Shown here one piece after another: positions 83-10,780 of a stretch of DNA of 60,485 nt. The position numbers were made by a program, and so were the translations under genes. The first letter of the stretch is position 1. The number at the start of each line of letters is the position of its first letter. The stretch is from the NCBI GenBank assembly GCA_964403785.1, contig CAYOHM010000001.1:1-60485 (forward strand). The letters are read 5' to 3'. Below the pieces are notes generated by a model. It was not told where the DNA came from. It saw only the letters and a list, made by a program, of their open reading frames with translations, and made no database searches. The stretch is from an uncultured Alistipes sp. Its GTDB lineage: Bacteria > Bacillota > Clostridia > Lachnospirales > Lachnospiraceae.

Positions 83-874
83 ATGCAGCAATTATTTTCC
101 CAATTAAAAGAGAAAATTCCAGACAAGCGTAAAGGCAGTATTCTCATTGTGTGCATATTACTGCTGCTGACTATCGCAATCTGCAATATACCTGCTATTC
201 TTAGCGTAAGCAGCAGTGTCGGCGGCCGCGAGCTTCCGATTTACTGCGTTCAGACTAACGAAAAAAAAATTGCTCTTTCATTTGATGCCGCATGGGGAAA
301 TGAGGATACACAAAATATTCTTGATATTCTTGAAAAACACAATGTTAAGGTGACTTTTTTTATGACCGGTGGCTGGGTTGAAAGTTTTCCGGAGGATGTT
401 AAGGCTATATATGCCGCAGGGCATGACCTCGGAAACCACAGTGAAAACCACAAGGATATGCCAACTCTCTCCGACAGCCAGCAGAAGGAGGAAATATTAA
501 AGGTTCATAATAAGGTAAAAGAGCTTACAGGATATGAAATGTTCCTGTTCCGCCCTCCATATGGTTCATACAACAACAACCTTGTCCTAAATGCTAAGGA
601 ATGTGGATATTACACTATTCAATGGGACGTAGATTCGCTCGACTGGAAAAATTATGGTATTGATTCCATTATCAAAACCGTAACCACGCATAAGCATCTC
701 GGAAACGGTTCCATTATTCTGTGTCATAACGGGGCACAATATACTGCACAGGCACTGGACACAATGATTACGAAGCTTAAGGAGCAGGGCTATGAACTGG
801 TCCCAATCTCACAGTTGATTTACCGTGACAATTATCATATGGACCATGAGGGACGACAGATTCCGACGGAGTGA
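83..874 (+). CDS. Polysaccharide deacetylase (NodB homology domain), PdaB-like sporulation deacetylase with N-terminal membrane anchor
   Basis: N-terminal hydrophobic segment. NodB motifs LSFDAAWGNED, VKVTFFMTGGW, GHDLGNHSENH, RPPYG and ILCHNG are present. Confidence 0.85.
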   Translation: MQQLFSQLKEKIPDKRKGSILIVCILLLLTIAICNIPAILSVSSSVGGRELPIYCVQTNEKKIALSFDAAWGNEDTQNILDILEKHNVKVTFFMTGGWVESFPEDVKAIYAAGHDLGNHSENHKDMPTLSDSQQKEEILKVHNKVKELTGYEMFLFRPPYGSYNNNLVLNAKECGYYTIQWDVDSLDWKNYGIDSIIKTVTTHKHLGNGSIILCHNGAQYTAQALDTMITKLKEQGYELVPISQLIYRDNYHMDHEGRQIPTE

Positions 875-889
875 AAGAACCTTTCACAA

Positions 890-930
890 TCAAAAAAGCA
901 GGTACGGGTATATCGCTTACCCATACCTGC
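890..930 (-). terminator. Rho-independent terminator after the NUDIX gene
   Basis: 13-bp stem with one mismatch, GCAGGTACGGGTA (898-910) pairing with TACCCATACCTGC (918-930). On the minus strand it is followed by TTTTTT (891-896). Confidence 0.6.
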
Positions 931-937
931 AAATACC

Positions 938-1744
938 TTATCTGCAGCCCGTATATTTATATAACTCCGGATTTTTTTCGCCAATGGACTTAACCTTACC
1001 TGCTATCTTCTCGTTAAAATCCGCTTTTTTTAATTTTCTGCCCAAAATCGCCTCATAAACCTTCTGAAGGTCGGAAAGTTTAAATTTTGAAGGCACAAGA
1101 TTAAATGCTATATCGGAATCTTCTATCTTTTTCCTCAATCTGAGCAGGCCCTTCAGAACAATCTCGGCGTGGTCAAAAGCCAATGCATCTTCACTCTCCA
1201 GAACCGGAACATATTTTACCAGCTTCACAACACCATTCTTGGAGGTTTCTTTTTTCAACGAGTACTTCATTGTGATATTGTGTTCCTCATTATAAAAAAC
1301 AAGCTCCTTTTGCGTAAGCTTTACATCAAACCAAAGTGCCTCCTTTGCGTCATCACCGGCAGTTACCTCTGCCACAGGCATCAGAGCGACATACGCAATA
1401 TCTATAACTCTCATTCTTGGATCTCTGTCCGGCTCGCTCATTGTATAGAGCTGCTCCATATACACATTCTTAAGGTCTGTTTCTTCCAACAGCTCCCTGC
1501 AGGCAGCGTCATCCGCAGATTCATTTATTTCAACAAATCCGCCCGCAAGTGCAAAACATTCAATAAAAGGATGATTCTTTCTCTGTATTAACAAAACCTT
1601 TAAATTATCCAGTGACTTATCCATACCAAAAATCAGCATATCAACCGTCACGGAAGGTCTGTCATAATCTCCGGGTCTGTAATTTGCCAAAAATTCTTTT
1701 TCGGTTAAACCATCCGCATTTCTCTTTTCACTACTTTGCATCAT
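938..1744 (-). CDS. NUDIX hydrolase with a C-terminal winged-helix-like domain (NrtR-like architecture)
   Basis: Nudix box GFVEINESADDAACRELLEETDL fits Gx5Ex7REUxEExGU except that the last G is D. About 90 aa of C-terminal extension resemble NrtR-type regulators. The 5' end overlaps the RND gene by 14 nt. Confidence 0.75.
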   Translation of the reverse strand: MMQSSEKRNADGLTEKEFLANYRPGDYDRPSVTVDMLIFGMDKSLDNLKVLLIQRKNHPFIECFALAGGFVEINESADDAACRELLEETDLKNVYMEQLYTMSEPDRDPRMRVIDIAYVALMPVAEVTAGDDAKEALWFDVKLTQKELVFYNEEHNITMKYSLKKETSKNGVVKLVKYVPVLESEDALAFDHAEIVLKGLLRLRKKIEDSDIAFNLVPSKFKLSDLQKVYEAILGRKLKKADFNEKIAGKVKSIGEKNPELYKYTGCR

Positions 1745-4700
1745 CGCTCTCCCCCTTTTCTCTCAACTGCTCCATATATTCGGCAGCATCATCCGGCATA
1801 TCGTCAAGATTATCCGAACCGACATCAATCTGAAGCGGTGCTCTCTTGAAAAGTATATCATACATAACCGGTATAATGAACAATGTCATAAGTGTTGCAT
1901 ATGCAAGACCGCCTGATATAACAAGCGCCATTCCCCTGCCCATCTGGCTGCCCATATCATCACCAAAGATAAGTGCTGCCATTGCCAAAATCGTTGTAAG
2001 TGCCGTCATAAGGATTGGGCGCATACGCGTCTTACCGGTCGCGATAAGCGCCTGCCTGCGTTCCATTCCTCCGATTCGAAGCTGGTTGGCATAATCAACA
2101 AACACAATGGCATTATTAACAACAGTACCCAGAAGAACTACAAAGCCCAGAAGTGACATCATCGAAAGCGGCTCACCCGTAAACCAGAGTGCCATAAAAC
2201 CTCCGGTGAATGCAAGCGGAATTGTGAAAAGTACTATAAACGGACTCAGCAGGCTTTGGAACTGTGCGACCATTACAAGATAAATAAAAGCCACACCCAA
2301 AAGCATTACAAGCACCATTTGTTCTACCATTTCATTTACCGTATCAACCTCACCGCCTATGTCAAAGTTGCAGCCCTGAGGAAGACTGTTTTCCTTGTAC
2401 TCCTCAAGCAAAGGTTCAAGCTGTCTTGTAAGAAGTGTTGTGTTATAGCCATCCTCAACTGCTGCCGTCACCGTAATGTATCTTGTCTGATTTTCACGAT
2501 TTATGGTTGTAACGCCTTCTTCTACCTGAAGCTGTGCAAAATCACTGAGCTTATAATCCTTAGTTACCGTATCACCGTCTTCATCCGTTTCACTTACCGC
2601 AAAGGTGCAATCCATAAGATTTTCATAGGTTACGGGCTGAGTGTTGTCCACCACCTCAATATCCATCTCAACACCATCAATCGTAACTGTAAGCGCTGTT
2701 GATGAGGTTGTCATTTTGGCTGAAAGCTCCTGATAAATCTGAGCGACTGTAAGTCCCTTGCTCATTGCTAAATCTTTATCAAGCACCACATGCAGCACAG
2801 GGTCACTTTCCTCCTGTCCGTTTGATATATCAGTATAACCCTCAACCTGTGAAACAATTTCCATAACCTCTTCACTTGTTTCACGCAGTTCATCAAGATC
2901 GGAGCCGTAAATATTGATTGAAAGACCGCTGCCAAGCATACTTGACATTTCCGACATACCTGTTGATATTGAAAAACAGTTCTCAGGATCATCAAGTACC
3001 TCTGCCGCTGCCTTATTCATTTCCGCTACTATGTTATTAACAACACCGCTGCCCGCATTTTCATCCTCCGTGAGCAACATAATCGTATAAGTCAGGTAAT
3101 TATCATCGGATGTACCCGCCGTTGATGTAATAAGACTTTCCGAGCCGCCCGACATTACGCCGACGGAGCCCACACCATCAATAGCTGCAAATTTTTCAAT
3201 AAGCTCGTCAGTTAATGCATATGCCTCCTCCCTGGTTGTATCCTCAGGATACTCTAAGGCTGCCTCAATCTGGTTGCTCGTCATATCAGGAATAAGCACT
3301 ATTCCCATTCTGACTACCTGCCATATACTTAATATAAGAAGTCCTACCGCTATTGCCAGTGGTATTATTTTGACTTTTAGGCAAAATGAAAGAATTCCGC
3401 CATATATCTCCTGAATCTTATCAAACCACGGATGCTGCTTAGCTTTGGAGCTGCGAAGCAGTGTGGAGCCTGCAGCCGGCACTACCGTCATTGCTATAAG
3501 AAGCGATGCCATCAGACAGAAGATAATCGTAATACACATAGGGAGCATTAATTCCCTTACTATACCAGTTGTATAGACCATTGGAAAGAATACACATACC
3601 GTGGTCAGCGTTGATGCAATAATAGCTCCGCTTACCTGTTTTGTACCTGCAACTGCTGCTCTTGCTGCTCCCACTCCCCTGCTGCGGAGTCGGTATATGT
3701 TCTCGATAACTACAATGGAATTATCTACCAGCATACCGATACCAAGCGACAGACCTGATAATGACATCATATTAAGCGATATACCCGAAAAATACATCGC
3801 AATAAGCGCCGTAAGCACCGATAGAGGAATACTGACGGCAACCACAATCGTAGGAAGCACATCCTTTAAAAATATTGCAAGAATGATAATAGCGAGCACT
3901 GCACCAAGAATCATACTCTGAAGTACGCTGTCTACAATAATATTGATGTAATCGCCCTGGTCCATCATCACAAGTATCTTAAGACCCTCATACTTATCCT
4001 CAAGATTTTGGATTGCGCTCTTGCAAGTCTTTGAAACATCATTTGTTCCCGCAGTACTGCTCTTGAATACTGAGAGTATTACTGCCTGTTCACCATTTAA
4101 TCTGGCATAGGACTCACCTGAATTATCTATGACCGTTACATTAGCTACATCGCTAAGTCTTATATCACCAATATCGTCAATGTGGCAGAGAACAATTCCC
4201 GAAAGCTCATCAACACTTTCGTAATTATCGCCCACCTTAACAAGCCATGAATTATCCTCCTCATCATCCACATAACCTGCCGGCATTGAGAAATTCTGTG
4301 CATAGATAAGTGAAGAAAGTGTAGAAAGCGAAAGGAGCTGATCTGCATTAGCGCTGCGCAGAGCTTCAACCTTAGCCTTCTCATACTGCTTTACTCCATC
4401 ATTATAGCTTTCCCAGCCGTCATCAAGCTGTTCCTGACCCTCCTTTAAAGAATCCCAGCCTGAATCAATCTGTTCCTGTGCCGTATCCATTGATTCCTCT
4501 GCTGACTCAAGCTGTGCCTTGGCAGACTCAATTGATGCCTCTCCTGAAGCTATCTGGGCATTTGCAGATCCAAACTGGGCTGCTGCCTGAAGCTTTGCAG
4601 TTTCTAAGCTGGTATAATCAATACCGGTGGCTTCAAGCTGCTGCTTATATTGCGCAATAATTGATTCTGTCACCTGAATCTCTATTTTAAGTGCGGCGAG

Positions 4701-5720
4701 CTCACTCTCATACTGTTCAAGCATCTTCTCTGAAGCAGAGTACAAAGGAGAGGAGATATCCTCCGGAAGACTTTCTTTTATCTGGGCTATTGCAGCTTCA
4801 ATTGCCGCCTGCTGTGACTGCTGGCTTGTAAGCTGTGTTTCATATGAAGAAAGCTGGTCAAGTGCCTGTGACACCTGTGCGAGCTGATTATAGGTATCCG
4901 TTTCAGTCTTATTCAGCTCTTCTTTTTGCTGAGCAAGAGCATCCTTCGAATCACCCCATGTCATCCAGCTTTCAAAAATCTCCTGACGCCCGTCATCCAG
5001 CTCCTTTTGCCCGTCTATAAGCTCCTGCTTGCTGTCATTAAGTTGCTTTTGGGAGTCCTCAAGAGTCTTTTTGGCATCCTCCAAATCCTCCAGTGCATCA
5101 GCCAGCTCATCATTGGCTTTAGCCAGTATCCTGTCATTTAATGCATCGACTTTATTTGCATCAAGCTCCACCTGAATTGACTTTTCAATAAGACCAAGTG
5201 AGGAAACACTTGCCACGCCGTCCTGACGTTCAAGCTGCGGTGTTACATAATCCTCAACAAAAGCAGAAAGCTCCTCAATATCCATTCCTTCATATGCGAC
5301 TGCCAAATACTGCGTAGCCATCATATCCGTACTGATTTCCATAATCGAAGGAGTACCGCACTCTGTCGGAAGGTAATCCTCTATTGAATCTATCGCGCCT
5401 GAAACACGAACCATTGCGCTGTCCATATCCGTGTCATCCTGAAATTCAAGCTCGATAAGTCCGTAATTTTCATTTGCTACCGAATATACATTCTGAACAC
5501 CCGAAACTGTGCCGAGCGCCTCCTCCATCGGCTCGCAGACCTGACTTTCAACCTTCTGCGGGCTGGCTCCCGGGTAGGTTACTATCACAATAAGATACGG
5601 CATACTGATGTCGGGCAGAAGGTCCAGCTTCATTTTGCCCAAACTGACAAAGCCGAGCAGTAACATTACGATAACCATTACAAGAACTGTAAATGGCTTT
5701 TTTACACTAAATTTTGACAT
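1731..5720 (-). CDS. RND superfamily efflux permease (AcrB/ACR_tran family) with a roughly 270-aa coiled-coil insertion
   Basis: N-terminus KKPFTVLVMVIVMLLLGF...LLPDISMPYLIVIVTYPGASPQKVE is typical of AcrB, and the protein has 12-TM topology with two large loops. It is 1329 aa against about 1030-1065 aa for typical members. The extra length is the Q/E/L-rich segment at aa ~196-468. GGGGGAG lies upstream of the ATG at 5720. Confidence 0.9.
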   Translation of the reverse strand: MSKFSVKKPFTVLVMVIVMLLLGFVSLGKMKLDLLPDISMPYLIVIVTYPGASPQKVESQVCEPMEEALGTVSGVQNVYSVANENYGLIELEFQDDTDMDSAMVRVSGAIDSIEDYLPTECGTPSIMEISTDMMATQYLAVAYEGMDIEELSAFVEDYVTPQLERQDGVASVSSLGLIEKSIQVELDANKVDALNDRILAKANDELADALEDLEDAKKTLEDSQKQLNDSKQELIDGQKELDDGRQEIFESWMTWGDSKDALAQQKEELNKTETDTYNQLAQVSQALDQLSSYETQLTSQQSQQAAIEAAIAQIKESLPEDISSPLYSASEKMLEQYESELAALKIEIQVTESIIAQYKQQLEATGIDYTSLETAKLQAAAQFGSANAQIASGEASIESAKAQLESAEESMDTAQEQIDSGWDSLKEGQEQLDDGWESYNDGVKQYEKAKVEALRSANADQLLSLSTLSSLIYAQNFSMPAGYVDDEEDNSWLVKVGDNYESVDELSGIVLCHIDDIGDIRLSDVANVTVIDNSGESYARLNGEQAVILSVFKSSTAGTNDVSKTCKSAIQNLEDKYEGLKILVMMDQGDYINIIVDSVLQSMILGAVLAIIILAIFLKDVLPTIVVAVSIPLSVLTALIAMYFSGISLNMMSLSGLSLGIGMLVDNSIVVIENIYRLRSRGVGAARAAVAGTKQVSGAIIASTLTTVCVFFPMVYTTGIVRELMLPMCITIIFCLMASLLIAMTVVPAAGSTLLRSSKAKQHPWFDKIQEIYGGILSFCLKVKIIPLAIAVGLLILSIWQVVRMGIVLIPDMTSNQIEAALEYPEDTTREEAYALTDELIEKFAAIDGVGSVGVMSGGSESLITSTAGTSDDNYLTYTIMLLTEDENAGSGVVNNIVAEMNKAAAEVLDDPENCFSISTGMSEMSSMLGSGLSINIYGSDLDELRETSEEVMEIVSQVEGYTDISNGQEESDPVLHVVLDKDLAMSKGLTVAQIYQELSAKMTTSSTALTVTIDGVEMDIEVVDNTQPVTYENLMDCTFAVSETDEDGDTVTKDYKLSDFAQLQVEEGVTTINRENQTRYITVTAAVEDGYNTTLLTRQLEPLLEEYKENSLPQGCNFDIGGEVDTVNEMVEQMVLVMLLGVAFIYLVMVAQFQSLLSPFIVLFTIPLAFTGGFMALWFTGEPLSMMSLLGFVVLLGTVVNNAIVFVDYANQLRIGGMERRQALIATGKTRMRPILMTALTTILAMAALIFGDDMGSQMGRGMALVISGGLAYATLMTLFIIPVMYDILFKRAPLQIDVGSDNLDDMPDDAAEYMEQLREKGESDDAK

Positions 5721-5741
5721 TATACTTACTCCCCCAATATA

Positions 5742-7397
5742 TTACGCATTCTTTACCGTACTACGGGTTTTGGCCTCCTCAAGCGCAAATGCAATATTAA
5801 TTGCGTGGTCACCAACTCTCTCAAGCCCCGAAACGACATCAGAAAAATAAATTCCTGCCTGTGCACTGCATTTACCCTGATTAAGTCGGTAAATATGTGC
5901 ATTCTGAAGATTTCTTTCCATCTGGTCAATCTTATCCTCAAGCTCATTAATTTCCTGCATCCTTGCGGTATTTCCGGTGACAAACATATCAAGCGATTCA
6001 TCCAGAATCGTATTAATAAGCTCCATCATCTCAGCGAGCTCCTTCTTACTGCTTTCGGACATCTGAATCTCATTCTCATACATCTGAGGAATTATTTCTG
6101 CGATGCTGTCGGCGTGGTCACCGATACGCTCAATATCATTTACTACATGAAAATATGCAGCGAGCAGATTAGAATCGGCGATAGGAAGTGTATTCTGATT
6201 AATCTTTACAAGGTAATCACTTATCTGCTCGTCAAGAAAATCTATGTATTTCTCCATTTCAAATACCTTCTTGCTCTTCTCCTCATTATTTTCAAGAAGA
6301 CATTCAACCGCAAGATTAAGGTTATCAACTGCCATTTTAGCCATACGCTCCATTTCCTGAACCGCCAGATACATTGCAACCGCCGGATTTGGAAGGCTGT
6401 GACCCGTTGTAATATATCTTAATGAGAAGTTGTTATCAGAACCAACCGTATCCTCTCCCGGAACAAGTACAAATGTAAGCTTTATAATAAGGTCCATAAA
6501 AGGATAGAACACTATTACCTGGAATACCTTAAATAAAAAGTGCGTAAGAGCTACATTACGTCCTAAATCCGAGGTGTGACCCGCACATATTCTTACTATA
6601 TTCTCAATTATATCTCCAAATAACATAAGGAGTATAAACATTAATATTGTACCGAAAACATTGAATAATAAATGAATGAGAGCAGCTCTCTTGGCGTTCT
6701 TGCTGTTTCCGATTGCTGCAAGTACTGCTGAGGTGCAGGCACCGATATTACAGCCCAAAATAACAAACATACAAGCTCTCAAATCGACAAGTCCCTGTGA
6801 AGCCATAACAACCAGTATACTGACAGTTACTGAGGAACTCTGAACCACTGACGTAATTACAAGTCCGAGAATTAATGCAAGCAGCGGATTTGTGAAATTA
6901 GCGAGGAAATTAATAACCGCCTGATTATCACTTAGCGTTCCCATTGCTGAGGACATACTGCTGATGCCCACAAAAAGTACGCCGAAACCCATAACCACAT
7001 CACCGTATTTACGGACTTTATTGTTTTTGAAGAAATTAATCATTATCGCACCGGCAAACACAAAAACCGGAGCAATCGAACTAAGCTTAAAGGATACAAG
7101 AAGTGCCGTTACTGTTGTACCGATATTAGCACCCAGTATGATTCCGCAGGCTTCTGTAAGCTTCATAAGTCCTGAATTAACAAAATTTACAACCATTACG
7201 GTCGCCGCACTCGATGACTGAATGACCGCCGTAAAAAAACAGCCCACCAAAAGTCCGAGGAACTTATTCTTGGTAAAAGCTTCAAGTATTTTACGCAGCC
7301 TATTACCGGCAACCTTCTCGATACCCCGACCCATAAGATTCATTCCGTAAATAAACAAACCAAGGCCGCCCATCAACTCAATCGCAACAAGACCCAT
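5742..7397 (-). CDS. Na/Pi cotransporter family protein with C-terminal PhoU-like repeats
   Basis: N-terminal polytopic NptA-like half (QSSSATVMVV and QSSSVTVSILV repeats). C-terminal helical half carries two PhoU-type motifs, NDIERIGDHA and SGLERVGDHA. Confidence 0.88.
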   Translation of the reverse strand: MGLVAIELMGGLGLFIYGMNLMGRGIEKVAGNRLRKILEAFTKNKFLGLLVGCFFTAVIQSSSAATVMVVNFVNSGLMKLTEACGIILGANIGTTVTALLVSFKLSSIAPVFVFAGAIMINFFKNNKVRKYGDVVMGFGVLFVGISSMSSAMGTLSDNQAVINFLANFTNPLLALILGLVITSVVQSSSVTVSILVVMASQGLVDLRACMFVILGCNIGACTSAVLAAIGNSKNAKRAALIHLLFNVFGTILMFILLMLFGDIIENIVRICAGHTSDLGRNVALTHFLFKVFQVIVFYPFMDLIIKLTFVLVPGEDTVGSDNNFSLRYITTGHSLPNPAVAMYLAVQEMERMAKMAVDNLNLAVECLLENNEEKSKKVFEMEKYIDFLDEQISDYLVKINQNTLPIADSNLLAAYFHVVNDIERIGDHADSIAEIIPQMYENEIQMSESSKKELAEMMELINTILDESLDMFVTGNTARMQEINELEDKIDQMERNLQNAHIYRLNQGKCSAQAGIYFSDVVSGLERVGDHAINIAFALEEAKTRSTVKNA

Positions 7398-7450
7398 ATT
7401 TTCTCTCCTGACACTTGTAAAATCTTCCTTTTTTTAATCACACGTGTAAT

Positions 7451-7480
7451 ATTATATTATATATGTGAAGATTTTGTAAA
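7451..7480 (-). promoter_or_regulatory. Candidate sigma-A promoter for the Na/Pi-RND-NUDIX unit
   Basis: Read on the minus strand: TTTACA (7475-7480), an 18-nt spacer, then TATAAT (7451-7456). It lies about 55 nt upstream of the ATG at 7397. Confidence 0.4.
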
Positions 7481-7486
7481 CTATTA

Positions 7487-8716
7487 TTAAAATTTTGACA
7501 TTTTTGTCTTATTCTTCATAATTGCGACTTCTTCGGCAGCAATCTCCTCATCACTGTATCTTGCCTTCTCATAAATATGTGTTATCTCTTGTGCATTTTC
7601 GTCCCAGCCGAGCTTATCCCTTGATATTTCCTGCGGAGAAGCTGTCCTGCTGATTTTTCCGTTCTTTTTGGTCCTGCTCTTTATTAATTTATAATATATT
7701 CTTCTTATCTTGCGGTCATTACCCTTAACTGTGTCAAAAACTCCTGTCCTATTAACAATTTCCGCGGCATCCTTTGACAAAACCGGTTTTATAAACTCTT
7801 TAACATCCGCGCCAGTGCTTTTATAATATTTAAAGCTTAAGACTGCCTTAAAAAGTATAACTAGCATAAATACCAGAATTACAGCAGCAAATAAGCCTGC
7901 AGCAACATTAAGAATCACCGTTCCCTGTGACATTTCCATATCAATTCCTGCCAACGGTCCCTGTGCTGCCGACGCGTTTGTATGCTCGATTATCTTCGTT
8001 TCGATGTCGCTGCTGTTTTGCGGCAGCTTTATCTTAAAGATACTAAGCAGTCCCAGAAGAAGCTTCCACAGTATATTAAGAAATCCCCACATAATTCCCT
8101 CCAGCCTAAGGTATGGGATTACAGCCATCACAATAACGCAAATAAGAATAAATACCGTCATCATAACTGAATTTACACTTATTGACTGCTCTGCATTAAA
8201 GCTTTTTACTGAAGCATTTTCCGACACAAGCTTGTTAAGATTCGAAATATTGTACCAAATCATATATGCAATAATGTAGATAAGCGTTCCGTAAAAGGGT
8301 ACGGTTGTTGCACTCTCCGCACCTATGGTAAAGCCCAGAAGATAGCAGGCGAGCAGGATTCCCACATCCAGAAGTATAACCGGAGCTTCCTTACTCCTGT
8401 GAAGCGAATAATACATAAGCACAATTGCAGGTACGAATACAAGCACCTTATCCTCAAGAGCACCCTCAACAACAAATAACACCGACATCGCAGCCGCCAG
8501 ATGCAGGATGAGCGCCAGCCTGCCATTACCGATAAAGGTTTTGACCAGATAATACGCTATAACCACAACGCCAATATAAAGCGTATTAAAGGTCTGAAAC
8601 GTTTCATATCCCATAAATCCGTGCAAAATAAAATTAACTGCGCTTACCGCAACACAAATTTGCATAAAAAGCTGCAAAAAATTCAAAATAAAATTAAAAA
8701 ATACATTATTTTTCAT
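7487..8716 (-). CDS. Polytopic membrane protein with a C-terminal DUF4129-like cytoplasmic domain
   Basis: About 8 hydrophobic helices, then a tail (RKIRRIYYKLI...SPQEISRDKL...ITHIYEKARYSDEE) that resembles DUF4129. Its start overlaps the DUF58 stop by 11 nt. Confidence 0.6.
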   Translation of the reverse strand: MKNNVFFNFILNFLQLFMQICVAVSAVNFILHGFMGYETFQTFNTLYIGVVVIAYYLVKTFIGNGRLALILHLAAAMSVLFVVEGALEDKVLVFVPAIVLMYYSLHRSKEAPVILLDVGILLACYLLGFTIGAESATTVPFYGTLIYIIAYMIWYNISNLNKLVSENASVKSFNAEQSISVNSVMMTVFILICVIVMAVIPYLRLEGIMWGFLNILWKLLLGLLSIFKIKLPQNSSDIETKIIEHTNASAAQGPLAGIDMEMSQGTVILNVAAGLFAAVILVFMLVILFKAVLSFKYYKSTGADVKEFIKPVLSKDAAEIVNRTGVFDTVKGNDRKIRRIYYKLIKSRTKKNGKISRTASPQEISRDKLGWDENAQEITHIYEKARYSDEEIAAEEVAIMKNKTKMSKF

Positions 8717-9839
8717 TGACAGTCACCTTCCATGGAAATACGCTCACCGACGGGCAGCCGTTTAAATCAAAATCCTCTGTATAAGTATATGGCAAAATCC
8801 ACATTGCTCCATTTGTTCTGATTGCAAGCTCTTCCATTGCTTTTTGCAGCGCATCAGTCTTTACAACGGAAATAAGCACATATAATGTATTTTGGTCCGC
8901 TTTCAATGCCTCATCTCTTGCAATTTCAACAAAATTCCGTTTTGCAAGCTTAAGGTCTATTCGTGCAAGGCTGTTTAACACCGTGTCCATATGCTCCGGT
9001 GACACAGCACTGTCGACGCTTACCATCTGTTTTGAGCAAATGTCGCAGCCGTTGCTTATGATTCTGACACCAATACGGTTAGCAAGCAATTTCGCGCAAA
9101 GTCCTGCTGCCACCGAAATACACTCCTCCGGCATCAGGTCCGATTCCCAGTTAGTTTTGGCTTCAAGATTTAACAGAATACATATTTCCTGACTTGATGT
9201 GTAATCATGCATATTTACCTTAAAATCGCCTGTTTTTGCGGAAGCCTTCCAGTTAATCGAGCCATAGGTATCACCCGTTGTATAGTCCCGAATCCCGCGA
9301 AATTCAAAGGGGTCCTCATATAAATATCTTCTTGTAAGAAGCTCGCCCATAATCTTTTTAAACGGAATATCAAGCCTGTCCGAATCCGCCGGTGCGGGGA
9401 ATACCGTAAGCTCTGTATAAAGTGATATATGCTTTACATACTGTGTATCAAGAAAAAGATTGGAGGATACCTCATCCGCCTCGGTGATTGTATAAAATCC
9501 GCGCTTTGCACATTTAAAGCTTAATGTTCGTGTGATTTTCTGAAAGAACAGCAGTGAAAAGACGTCATTCTTGTAACATTGATCCGATACCGAAAAATCT
9601 TCATCAATATCCGTAAAATCAAGATTACGGCTGACAATAAATTTCAACTGCAGCATAAGAAGAGGCAGCACTTTGTTATTGGTGATTACCTCAACAAGAT
9701 TTACCGTTTCACCTTTTACTGCCTTGTTTTTTGAAAAATCTATGCTAACCTTTAGATTATTGCTCCAGAATTTTTCATAAATAAGATTCTGCAGCAAATA
9801 AACTGCTGCAGCACCCGCTAATATTATAAATAGAATCAT
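8706..9839 (-). CDS. DUF58 domain protein (vWA-like partner of MoxR ATPases)
   Basis: N-terminal TM helix and the DUF58 core FEFRGIRDYTTGDTYGSINWKASAKTGDFKVNMHDYT. There is a 4-nt overlap with the moxR-like gene. Confidence 0.85.
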   Translation of the reverse strand: MILFIILAGAAAVYLLQNLIYEKFWSNNLKVSIDFSKNKAVKGETVNLVEVITNNKVLPLLMLQLKFIVSRNLDFTDIDEDFSVSDQCYKNDVFSLLFFQKITRTLSFKCAKRGFYTITEADEVSSNLFLDTQYVKHISLYTELTVFPAPADSDRLDIPFKKIMGELLTRRYLYEDPFEFRGIRDYTTGDTYGSINWKASAKTGDFKVNMHDYTSSQEICILLNLEAKTNWESDLMPEECISVAAGLCAKLLANRIGVRIISNGCDICSKQMVSVDSAVSPEHMDTVLNSLARIDLKLAKRNFVEIARDEALKADQNTLYVLISVVKTDALQKAMEELAIRTNGAMWILPYTYTEDFDLNGCPSVSVFPWKVTVNEK

Positions 9840-10780
9840 TCCCTATCCCATGCCTCTGTCGGAACTGCAATTTTCCCGATTATTTCCGTGATTATTGTAT
9901 TGCAGTAATTACCCGCATTTCTTCCTGATGTGAGTGAAATTCTATGTGCAAATACCGGAACGGCAAGTGTCTTAATATCCTCAGGTATAACATAACTTCT
10001 TCCCTGAATATACGCATACGCTCTTGCCGCATTCAGCATCGCAAGTGTTCCTCTGGTGCTGACACCTATTGCAACGTTAGGGTTATTTCTTGTACTCTCA
10101 ACGATTCCGGCTATGTATTCAATAAGGTCCCTATGTATGAATACCTTCTTAATGTCCTTCTGAACCTTAATAATCTCCTGTGCATCCATAACCGAAGAAA
10201 GTGTTTCTGCCGGATTGTCTGCCAAAAACCTGTTCATTATCTGTATTTCTTCATCAACAGAAGGAGTTCCCATTGAAATCTTGAGCAGAAATCTGTCAAG
10301 CTGTGCCTGAGGAAGCTGAAAGGTTCCAGCCGTTTCGATTGGATTTTCTGTGGCAATGACAAAAAAAGGATTGTCAAGCGGATAAGTAACACCATCAATC
10401 GTTACCTGCTTTTCCTCCATACACTCAAGCAGACTTGACTGTGTTCTCGGAGTTGCTCTGTTTATCTCATCAGCAAGCAGTATATTGGTAAATACCGGAC
10501 CCTTCTTTAGCTGAAACTCGGAGGACTTCTGGTTATAAATATTAAGTCCCGTGACATCAGCCGGAAGAAGATCCGGAGTAAACTGAATCCTTTTAAAATC
10601 AAGATTTACTGATTTAGCAAGGGATTTGGAAAGCATTGTCTTGCCTGTTCCGGGCACATCCTCCAAAAGAACGTGTCCGCCCGCAGCAAATGCCGTGAGC
10701 ACAAGCTCAATAACATCCGATTTGCCGACGATTACTTTTTGTATATTTGCCTTAATATCCGTTATAGCCGCCATAAACAT
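9836..10780 (-). CDS. MoxR-family AAA+ ATPase
   Basis: Walker A PGTGKTMLSKSLA, RIQFTPDLLPADVTG, and Walker B/sensor LLADEINRATPRTQSSLLECMEE. The start may instead be the ATG at 10774, which has better spacing to GAAAGGG. Confidence 0.9.
   Translation of the reverse strand: MFMAAITDIKANIQKVIVGKSDVIELVLTAFAAGGHVLLEDVPGTGKTMLSKSLAKSVNLDFKRIQFTPDLLPADVTGLNIYNQKSSEFQLKKGPVFTNILLADEINRATPRTQSSLLECMEEKQVTIDGVTYPLDNPFFVIATENPIETAGTFQLPQAQLDRFLLKISMGTPSVDEEIQIMNRFLADNPAETLSSVMDAQEIIKVQKDIKKVFIHRDLIEYIAGIVESTRNNPNVAIGVSTRGTLAMLNAARAYAYIQGRSYVIPEDIKTLAVPVFAHRISLTSGRNAGNYCNTIITEIIGKIAVPTEAWDRE

Follow-up and report, generated by a model that had tools for sequence, protein, structure and literature searches.

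A Lachnospiraceae RND permease of the AcrB type with a predicted coiled-coil hairpin inserted in its docking subdomain

How does a resistance-nodulation-division (RND) pump deal with the thick wall of a monoderm cell? RND pumps of monoderms are usually viewed as leftovers of a diderm ancestry or as stand-alone pumps, and they are poorly understood. The question is raised by a locus in a stretch of 60,485 nucleotides (contig CAYOHM010000001.1 of assembly GCA_964403785.1, deposited as an uncultured Alistipes sp. and placed by GTDB in the Lachnospiraceae), which is called the window here. A single open reading frame (ORF) at 1731..5720 on the minus strand encodes a 1329-aa RND permease of the AcrB/AcrD/AcrF type. 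A sequence-only reading of the window had proposed that this protein is AcrB-like but too long, that the excess is one coiled-coil block in the first extracytoplasmic loop, and that this block might form a conduit or spacer through the wall. We therefore consider where the extra sequence lies, what fold it is predicted to adopt, how widespread it is and what it may do.

The body of the permease is indeed AcrB-like. Its match to the Pfam profile ACR_tran (PF00873) scores 651.8 bits (cut-off 28) and falls into two pieces, which extend to profile position 1019 of 1021. Solved HAE-1 pumps are its best matches in sequence (up to 7e-78) and in fold (Foldseek ~1e-36); the fold matches include AdeJ, MtrD, AcrB and CmeB, at a TM-score of ~0.5 for a model of moderate confidence. 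The MMPL profile gives a weak overlapping match of 35 bits, and the body is of the ACR_tran type. The protein falls below the cut-off of every curated NCBIfam RND subfamily, with 340.9 bits against 940 for TIGR00915, 525.1 against 1250 for NF033617, 413.2 against 1250 for NF000282 and 401.6 against 701 for TIGR00914. Like the HAE-1 pumps AcrB, MexB, AdeJ and MdtB, it has 12 transmembrane (TM) helices and two large external loops carrying the PN1/PN2/DN and PC1/PC2/DC subdomains. It differs from these Gram-negative, tripartite pumps in its monoderm host, in an extra hairpin of ~270 aa and in having no AcrA-like or TolC-like genes nearby.

The extra sequence was located by three alignments. The second ACR_tran piece places aa 460-1289 on profile positions 195-1019, and in the alignment with MdtB (9lyq) MdtB 15-206 corresponds to permease 4-194 and MdtB 211-1026 to permease 466-1295. 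As these two alignments show, the excess length is a single block of ~270 residues (aa ~195-465, nt ~4329-5135, minus strand). A MAFFT alignment with the authentic E. coli acrB gene product sets the insertion point in the DN funnel subdomain, where the loop joining beta1 to alpha1 is interrupted between AcrB F196 and Q197; by this alignment the inserted residues are aa 197-464 (4329..5132, minus strand). The flanks are those that had been proposed for the start of DN. On the N-terminal side the AcrB alignment gives RIWMNPNELNKF, and the strand preceding the insert ends ...YAMRIWMNPNELNKF; the first DN helix comes after the insert. This alpha1 helix and the motif QNFSMPAGY (aa 465-483, equivalent to AcrB 203-220; 4272..4328, minus strand) follow directly, and the motif is nearly invariant in a family alignment of 41 sequences (A1), where eight of its nine residues (Q475, N476, F477, M479, P480, A481, G482 and Y483) do not change and only S478 varies. 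The second large loop carries no comparable insertion, as had been claimed: this part of the permease spans 830 residues against 816 in MdtB.

The insert is of strongly biased composition, with A, E, Q, L, S and D making up 67% of its residues, and contains 3 Met and 10 Gly. Its net charge of -35 is like that of the remaining ectodomain. The sequence-only reading had described this composition well except in one respect, the absence of proline: two prolines, P319 and P325, are present and flank the predicted tip. It had also noted heptads of the xxxLxxG type at both ends of the block. These are present, in mirror-image blocks, one residue away from the positions first given, and lie at aa 231-237, 238-244, (250-256), 387-393, 415-421, 422-428, 429-435 and (436-442). 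A hydrophobic residue stands three positions before 8 of the 10 insert glycines; the mean in shuffled sequences was 2.4, and none of 2000 shuffles reached 8. Searches of Pfam and NCBIfam with the insert matched generic coiled-coil families only.

We modelled the region with AlphaFold2, using the 41-sequence alignment that also served for conservation, in one run over aa 1-1200 and one focused on aa 120-600. In the focused model the insert has a pLDDT (predicted local distance difference test) of 87-94 and forms an unbroken helix at 188-316, a loop at 317-324 and a second helix at 325-456 with a small kink. The larger model, with a pLDDT of 65 and a pTM (predicted template modelling score) of 0.43, gives helices at 188-236 and 252-316, the same loop, and helices at 325-364 and 369-456. 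The ascending helix (aa 188-316, 129 residues; 4773..5159, minus strand) is thus interrupted in the larger model by a low-confidence break at 237-251. The tip loop, aa 317-324 (SLPEDISS; 4749..4772, minus strand), was delimited by DSSP on both models and is polar and free of Cys; P319 lies inside it and P325 is the first residue of the descending helix. That helix (aa 325-456; 4353..4748, minus strand) kinks at 365-368 and continues into DN alpha1 in both models. At 1.5 A per residue, 129 residues correspond to a predicted hairpin length of ~19 nm. The confident helices bear out a helical hairpin over a disordered linker, the two outcomes that the sequence-only reading had set against each other. 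A comparison of the focused model with the PDB gave alignments of ~140-150 columns confined to the DN/PN2 body of known RND pumps; no analogue of the hairpin stood among the best 50 matches, and structure searches with both models found no solved structure that carries a hairpin at the F196/Q197 site.

The same architecture can be read from the family without any structural model. We compared 152 distinct inserts, which range from 180 to 442 aa. Of their 370 prolines, 237 lie within the central 20% of the insert length, and the proline tip sits at a relative position of 0.47 +/- 0.06. The two arms grow together, with mean start-to-tip and tip-to-end lengths in five length classes of 90/106, 121/129, 165/158, 155/200 and 184/215 residues. 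In the 41-sequence alignment, mirror-image blocks of 35 residues at 228-262 and 415-449 are confined to the long-insert subgroup, and the xxxLxxG patches fall in the same places. Finally, counts of the motif [hydrophobic]xxG in the N-terminal and C-terminal halves of the 152 inserts are correlated (rho 0.66), as are the total count and insert length (rho 0.87). Taken together, the proline, arm-length, mirror-block and motif-count results are those to be expected of an antiparallel hairpin that lengthens by matched gain of heptads in both arms, and they would not be explained by a linker or a globular domain. From the models and these family patterns, the insert is predicted to be a rigid two-helix antiparallel coiled-coil hairpin with ~130 residues per arm.

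The type of coil can be judged from position-wise conservation. Heptad periodicity runs throughout the insert, and across the family the basal segments have L, I, V, M, F, Y or W at 86-100% of a positions and A, G or S at 81-94% of d positions. On the descending helix this conserved a/d seam reads A379-F383-A386-I390-G393-I397...L404-A407-M411-A414. The other heptad positions, e and g included, are polar or charged and variable, and no second conserved hydrophobic stripe was found in the family heptads. A single narrow stripe is typical of a tightly packed two-helix antiparallel coil of the 'Alacoil' class, in which one core position is small and the other large and hydrophobic; the sequences of the basal segments show just this division. 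The xxxLxxG heptad is, by its residue pattern, an extreme form of the same scheme of a large hydrophobic residue at a and a small one at d. Two extension blocks consist of such heptads: one of 35 aa and five heptads on the ascending arm (aa 228-262; 4935..5039, minus strand), found only in the long-insert subgroup, and its xxxLxxG(W) mirror partner, also of 35 aa and five heptads, on the descending arm (aa 415-449; 4374..4478, minus strand). Relatives with short inserts have the hairpin and lack the paired xxxLxxG heptads, so that these heptads are an optional extension module and not the defining feature. Outside the seam, insert positions diverge much faster than the pump body; in three tiers of relatives the identities are 60 versus 82%, 45 versus 66% and 25 versus 41%. 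The family inserts have next to no Cys (mean 0.09 per insert), and the tip is polar and variable.

The affiliation first suggested for the repeat was not upheld. The insert had been linked to the TIGR03057-type repeat of YhgE/Pip proteins, a model defined on the YhgE/Pip-type group. With this 28-residue model (cut-off 18.6 bits) no match was obtained at either end of the insert, even at E<=10, and a formal assignment to it was rejected; one repeat-rich FtsX protein scores only 14.8 bits. Neither the permease nor the insert matches a YhgE/Pip domain in Pfam or NCBIfam. An exhaustive phmmer search with the insert alone returned 441 representatives at E<=1e-3, and 36 of 40 sampled were Firmicute FtsX/MacB_PCD ATP-binding cassette (ABC) permeases with ELxDG heptad arrays in an external domain. 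These proteins (P0247-P0292) have 800-1600 aa and carry very long extracytoplasmic ELxDGxxELxDG arrays. Outside its own family, the insert has its closest sequence relatives in these permeases, which share its xxxLxxG heptad type and its extracytoplasmic location and belong to a transporter class that uses adaptor hairpins in diderms. Their transporter fold, however, is unrelated, and they form dimers and not trimers. The similarity may come from shared repeat composition rather than from common descent.

The insert is widespread. Our survey covered 67 loci and 240 protein clusters in Clostridia and found inserts of 180-442 aa in every relative examined. The insert stands at the same site in all of the best 120 homologues of the permease (274-442 aa), in all 120 listed relatives of a short-insert form, and in the pump ORFs of species-representative genomes at 64 of the 64 loci where both flanks could be located (180-404 aa). 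Carriers include Lachnospiraceae, Oscillospiraceae, Ruminococcaceae, Anaerovoracaceae, Proteiniclasticum, Caldicoprobacterales and others, among them the cultured Lachnospiraceae bacterium NC2008 and Proteiniclasticum species such as Proteiniclasticum aestuarii. By this count of sequences, the insert-bearing architecture is the rule in a large clade of Clostridia and not a rarity; databases label such relatives merely 'efflux RND transporter permease subunit'. A permease identical to that of the window is encoded on an independent contig (L001). Parts of the gene, the insert among them, also turn up without joints in contigs from gut metatranscriptomes; these contigs are a weak sign of expression because DNA carry-over is possible. 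Some of the longer relatives (P0009-P0021) come with pre-computed matches to PF28019, PF27881, PF24161 and PF28256, which our local Pfam copy did not reproduce or does not contain. In one of them (P0012) the tip region is much enlarged and includes non-helical sequence. Long-insert forms may carry a small cap domain.

No adaptor or outer-channel genes lie near the pump, again as first noted. Genes for a membrane fusion protein (MFP) or an outer-membrane factor (OMF), whose adjacency marks tripartite RND efflux, are absent among the neighbours in the window, and no MFP or OMF family recurred when ORFs up to 5 kb from the pump gene were clustered across the 67 loci. A phmmer search with AcrA, which is of limited sensitivity, found nothing in the window or at the 67 loci. 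The sole functionally suggestive recurring neighbours are TetR regulators, present upstream at 12 loci and downstream at 11; the rest are unrelated housekeeping genes. The TetR loci (within the range L017-L063, for example L043 7382-8008 and L024 11789-12442) belong to distant relatives, and the window locus itself has no TetR gene. Such neighbours fit inducible efflux of toxic compounds.

Several known systems resemble the pump in part. The closest parallel in function is offered by the mycobacterial MmpL pumps, and the analogy drawn to MmpL4/5 proved apt. Efflux by MmpL5 depends on a 196-aa antiparallel coiled coil, for which a hexameric barrel of 13 nm has been modelled; its heptads are bifaceted (types I and II), its lumen is lined with Met, its hydrophobic tip is conserved and disulfide-bonded, and MmpL5 has an MmpS partner. 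In MmpL10, removal of the coiled coil abolishes oligomerisation. The coils of MmpL5 and MmpL10 are needed for efflux or trimer formation, and they extend into the wall. MmpL4/5/10 and the Clostridia pump are alike in being RND-superfamily pumps with a built-in antiparallel hairpin (~200 residues in MmpL) directed toward the wall in a host without TolC. They differ in that MmpL proteins have an MMPL/HAE-2 body with the coil in the second loop (PD2), whereas the Clostridia pump has an ACR_tran body with the hairpin in DN of the first loop, and none of the MmpL5 signatures (bifaceted heptads, Met-lined lumen, disulfide-bonded hydrophobic tip, MmpS partner) was seen in it. As family, loop and heptad signature all differ, the two kinds of coiled coil are independent and convergent.

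SwrC (YerP) of Bacillus subtilis and FemT of Staphylococcus aureus are AcrB-like monoderm pumps that work with no TolC-type channel and are described as much like Gram-negative pumps; their descriptions mention no helical extension, which sets them apart from the Clostridia pump. Both have ~1050-1065 aa, the length of a pump without the insert. EsaA, YueB and PIP share with the predicted hairpin an elongated helical ectodomain, 20 nm or more in length, that runs through the Firmicute wall; that of EsaA is a 20-nm wall-spanning 'there and back again' structure, and the ectodomains of all three are phage receptors. They differ in having a beta-domain at the tip, in being dimers and in not being transporters of the RND class. 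The alpha-hairpins of the adaptors AcrA, MacA and Spr0693 are likewise antiparallel two-helix hairpins that sit on top of an RND or MacB pump, with the difference that there are six per pump, where the Clostridia pump would have three, each built covalently into the permease. That the insert is homologous to the hairpin of AcrA was considered and rejected, as blastp gave only E > 3. Clostridioides difficile has an MFP-RND-TolC-like operon whose TolC-like protein fractionates with the surface-layer proteins.

We propose that the beta1-alpha1 loop of DN has grown into a rigid two-helix coiled-coil hairpin of ~19 nm, with a tight small-residue core formed by large hydrophobic residues at a and Ala, Gly or Ser at d. 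In evolution the two arms would gain or lose heptads in step and so change the length of the hairpin; the xxxLxxG blocks would be one such matched pair of extensions. The pump would be trimeric like its relatives, and three rods would then surround the opening of the exit funnel and project into the zone of the wall, because beta1 rises from PN2 and the loop that follows it lies on the membrane-distal face. There the rods would do what a separate adaptor and an outer channel do in diderm pumps. Since position-wise conservation gives a single stripe and no second, a sealed six-helix tube is less likely than three self-contained rods. The hairpins would make up a stalk, open or loosely associated, to hold the exit path free and lead it off from the membrane across the inner part of the wall; amphiphilic substrates would then not drop straight back into the membrane. 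We favour this open stalk in place of adaptor and duct tentatively, at somewhat below an even chance.

Several observations weigh against it. The direction of the hairpin and the contact between hairpins follow from topology alone, and the model of aa 1-1200 is of only moderate confidence. A hairpin of 19 nm would not cross a wall of 30-50 nm. The hairpin surface and tip are poorly conserved, so that there is no specific functional surface to point to. The same heptads occur in dimeric MacB/FtsX permeases, where no tube is possible, and the role may therefore be mechanical or structural. The AcrA-based search is of limited sensitivity, and adaptor genes may also lie elsewhere in the genome.

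Four other explanations have to be set beside the open stalk. That the insert is a low-complexity or disordered linker, or an artefact of assembly or annotation, is suggested by its biased composition and by its matching nothing but generic coiled-coil families; it is scarcely credible given the heptad periodicity and confident helix prediction, the hundreds of independent assemblies with an in-frame insert at the same site, the identical protein on an independent contig and the metatranscriptome pieces that run inside the insert with no joints. A closed conduit would have the three hairpins packed as a six-helix alpha-barrel with substrates leaving through the lumen, as proposed for MmpL5. 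The trimeric HAE-1 type of the body, the position of the insertion within the funnel subdomain, the precedent of the MmpL5 barrel model and the absence of adaptor genes nearby all speak for it. However, the hairpin has only one conserved a/d stripe, with e and g polar and variable, and insert length varies more than two-fold among relatives. Moreover, the features of MmpL5 on which the tube rests, namely bifaceted heptads, a Met lumen and a disulfide tip, are missing from a Clostridia insert that has 3 Met, almost no Cys, a polar tip and a charge of -35, and for this reason we rate a sealed tube low, as unlikely.

The hairpins might instead serve assembly or anchoring, driving or stabilising the trimer or wedging into peptidoglycan with no role in the substrate path. 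This would agree with the loss of oligomerisation in MmpL10 without its coiled coil, with conservation of the structural seam alone while the surface is free to vary, and with the same type of repeat in MacB/FtsX permeases, which act by mechanotransmission and form no tube. AcrB-type pumps trimerise without such a domain, though, and a single-stripe, strongly acidic hairpin shows no evident surface for contact with another; we regard this role as unlikely. Less probable still, and in our view very unlikely, is an exposed element or docking mast whose tip binds a wall or S-layer partner such as a TolC-like protein, or whose rapid change is driven by recognition by phage or host. The C. difficile operon with its surface-layer-associated TolC-like protein offers a precedent for the former and the similarly built phage receptors EsaA, YueB and PIP for the latter, and the insert does evolve faster than the body and is very variable in length. 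Its tip, on the other hand, is short, polar and unconserved, which makes it a poor site for a specific partner, and no candidate partner gene recurs nearby.

Other features of the permease and its surroundings bear on how the pump may be driven and expressed. The AcrB proton relay of D407, D408, K940 and R971 corresponds to D666, N667, N1202 and R1232, so that the TM4 Asp and the TM11 Arg are kept, two positions are replaced by Asn, and the full AcrB-type set (TM4 Asp-Asp, TM10 Lys, TM11 Arg) is lacking. By alignment with AcrB, the TM4 pair D666-N667 (equivalent to D407-D408) lies at 3720..3725 and the TM10 pair N1202-N1203 (equivalent to K940-N941) at 2112..2117, both on the minus strand. D666-N667 is invariant in the 41-sequence alignment and the TM10 Asn-Asn nearly so (at least 90%). 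As the counterparts of D408 and K940 are both Asn, the clade may couple transport to ions, protons or another ion, in a way different from AcrB. The C-terminal cytoplasmic tail (aa ~1295-1329, window 1731-1835) is strongly acidic (DVGSDNLDDMPDDAAEYMEQLREKGESDDAK), and its DDxPDD part is kept in the family consensus.

Upstream of the permease, a gene for a Na/Pi cotransporter fused to PhoU domains (5742..7397, minus strand) ends 21 nt before the permease start, and downstream a gene combining Nudix and NrtR winged-helix domains (938..1744, minus strand) overlaps the permease stop by 14 nt and is probably co-transcribed with it. A strong promoter-like site lies ahead of the Na/Pi-PhoU gene at 7480-7451, and a strong terminator-like hairpin with a 13-bp stem follows the Nudix/NrtR gene at 930-898, both on the minus strand. 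The region 898-7480 on this strand thus looks like a three-gene operon of Na/Pi-PhoU, RND pump and Nudix/NrtR genes, and the gene order is repeated on contig L001. It is unusual to find an NrtR-type regulator behind an efflux pump. Beyond the putative operon, three genes with overlapping frames at 7487-10780 (minus strand) encode a MoxR-type AAA ATPase (9836-10780), a DUF58 protein (8706-9839) and a 409-aa multi-pass membrane protein (7487-8716) for which no family match was found. In the first 12 kb, all identified real genes except the first (83-874, plus strand) lie on the minus strand. GC skew is negative in nearly every 2-kb bin, with a cumulative value of -4.45 over 60 kb; skew and gene orientation fit a single replication arm with co-oriented genes.

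In open-access papers and bioRxiv preprints we found no description of an AcrB-type pump with a hairpin in DN, nor one of FtsX/MacB permeases with long heptad arrays. Public AlphaFold models of such pumps probably exist, and there may be prior informal knowledge of them. On a wider and rather doubtful view, Clostridia would have exchanged adaptor and duct for a built-in mast of tunable length, made from a heptad cassette of a large hydrophobic residue and Gly or Ala and extended by matched growth of both arms. This mast would have been used independently on AcrB-type RND and on MacB/FtsX ABC permeases, in convergence with the MmpL coils, and its length would track the wall architecture of each lineage.

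In a large clade rich in gut bacteria, a conserved, predicted hairpin of 19 nm is placed exactly where diderm pumps meet their adaptor and channel, which suggests a distinct way for a monoderm RND pump to handle a thick wall. It would be a second, independent case beside the coiled coils of MmpL4/5/10 described in 2025, and the paired-heptad change in length would offer a clear example of how a coiled-coil hairpin evolves. Lachnospiraceae and Oscillospiraceae of the human and animal gut carry such pumps in abundance, often beside TetR regulators, and for both reasons the pumps may matter for the tolerance of the microbiome to bile acids, fatty acids and drugs.

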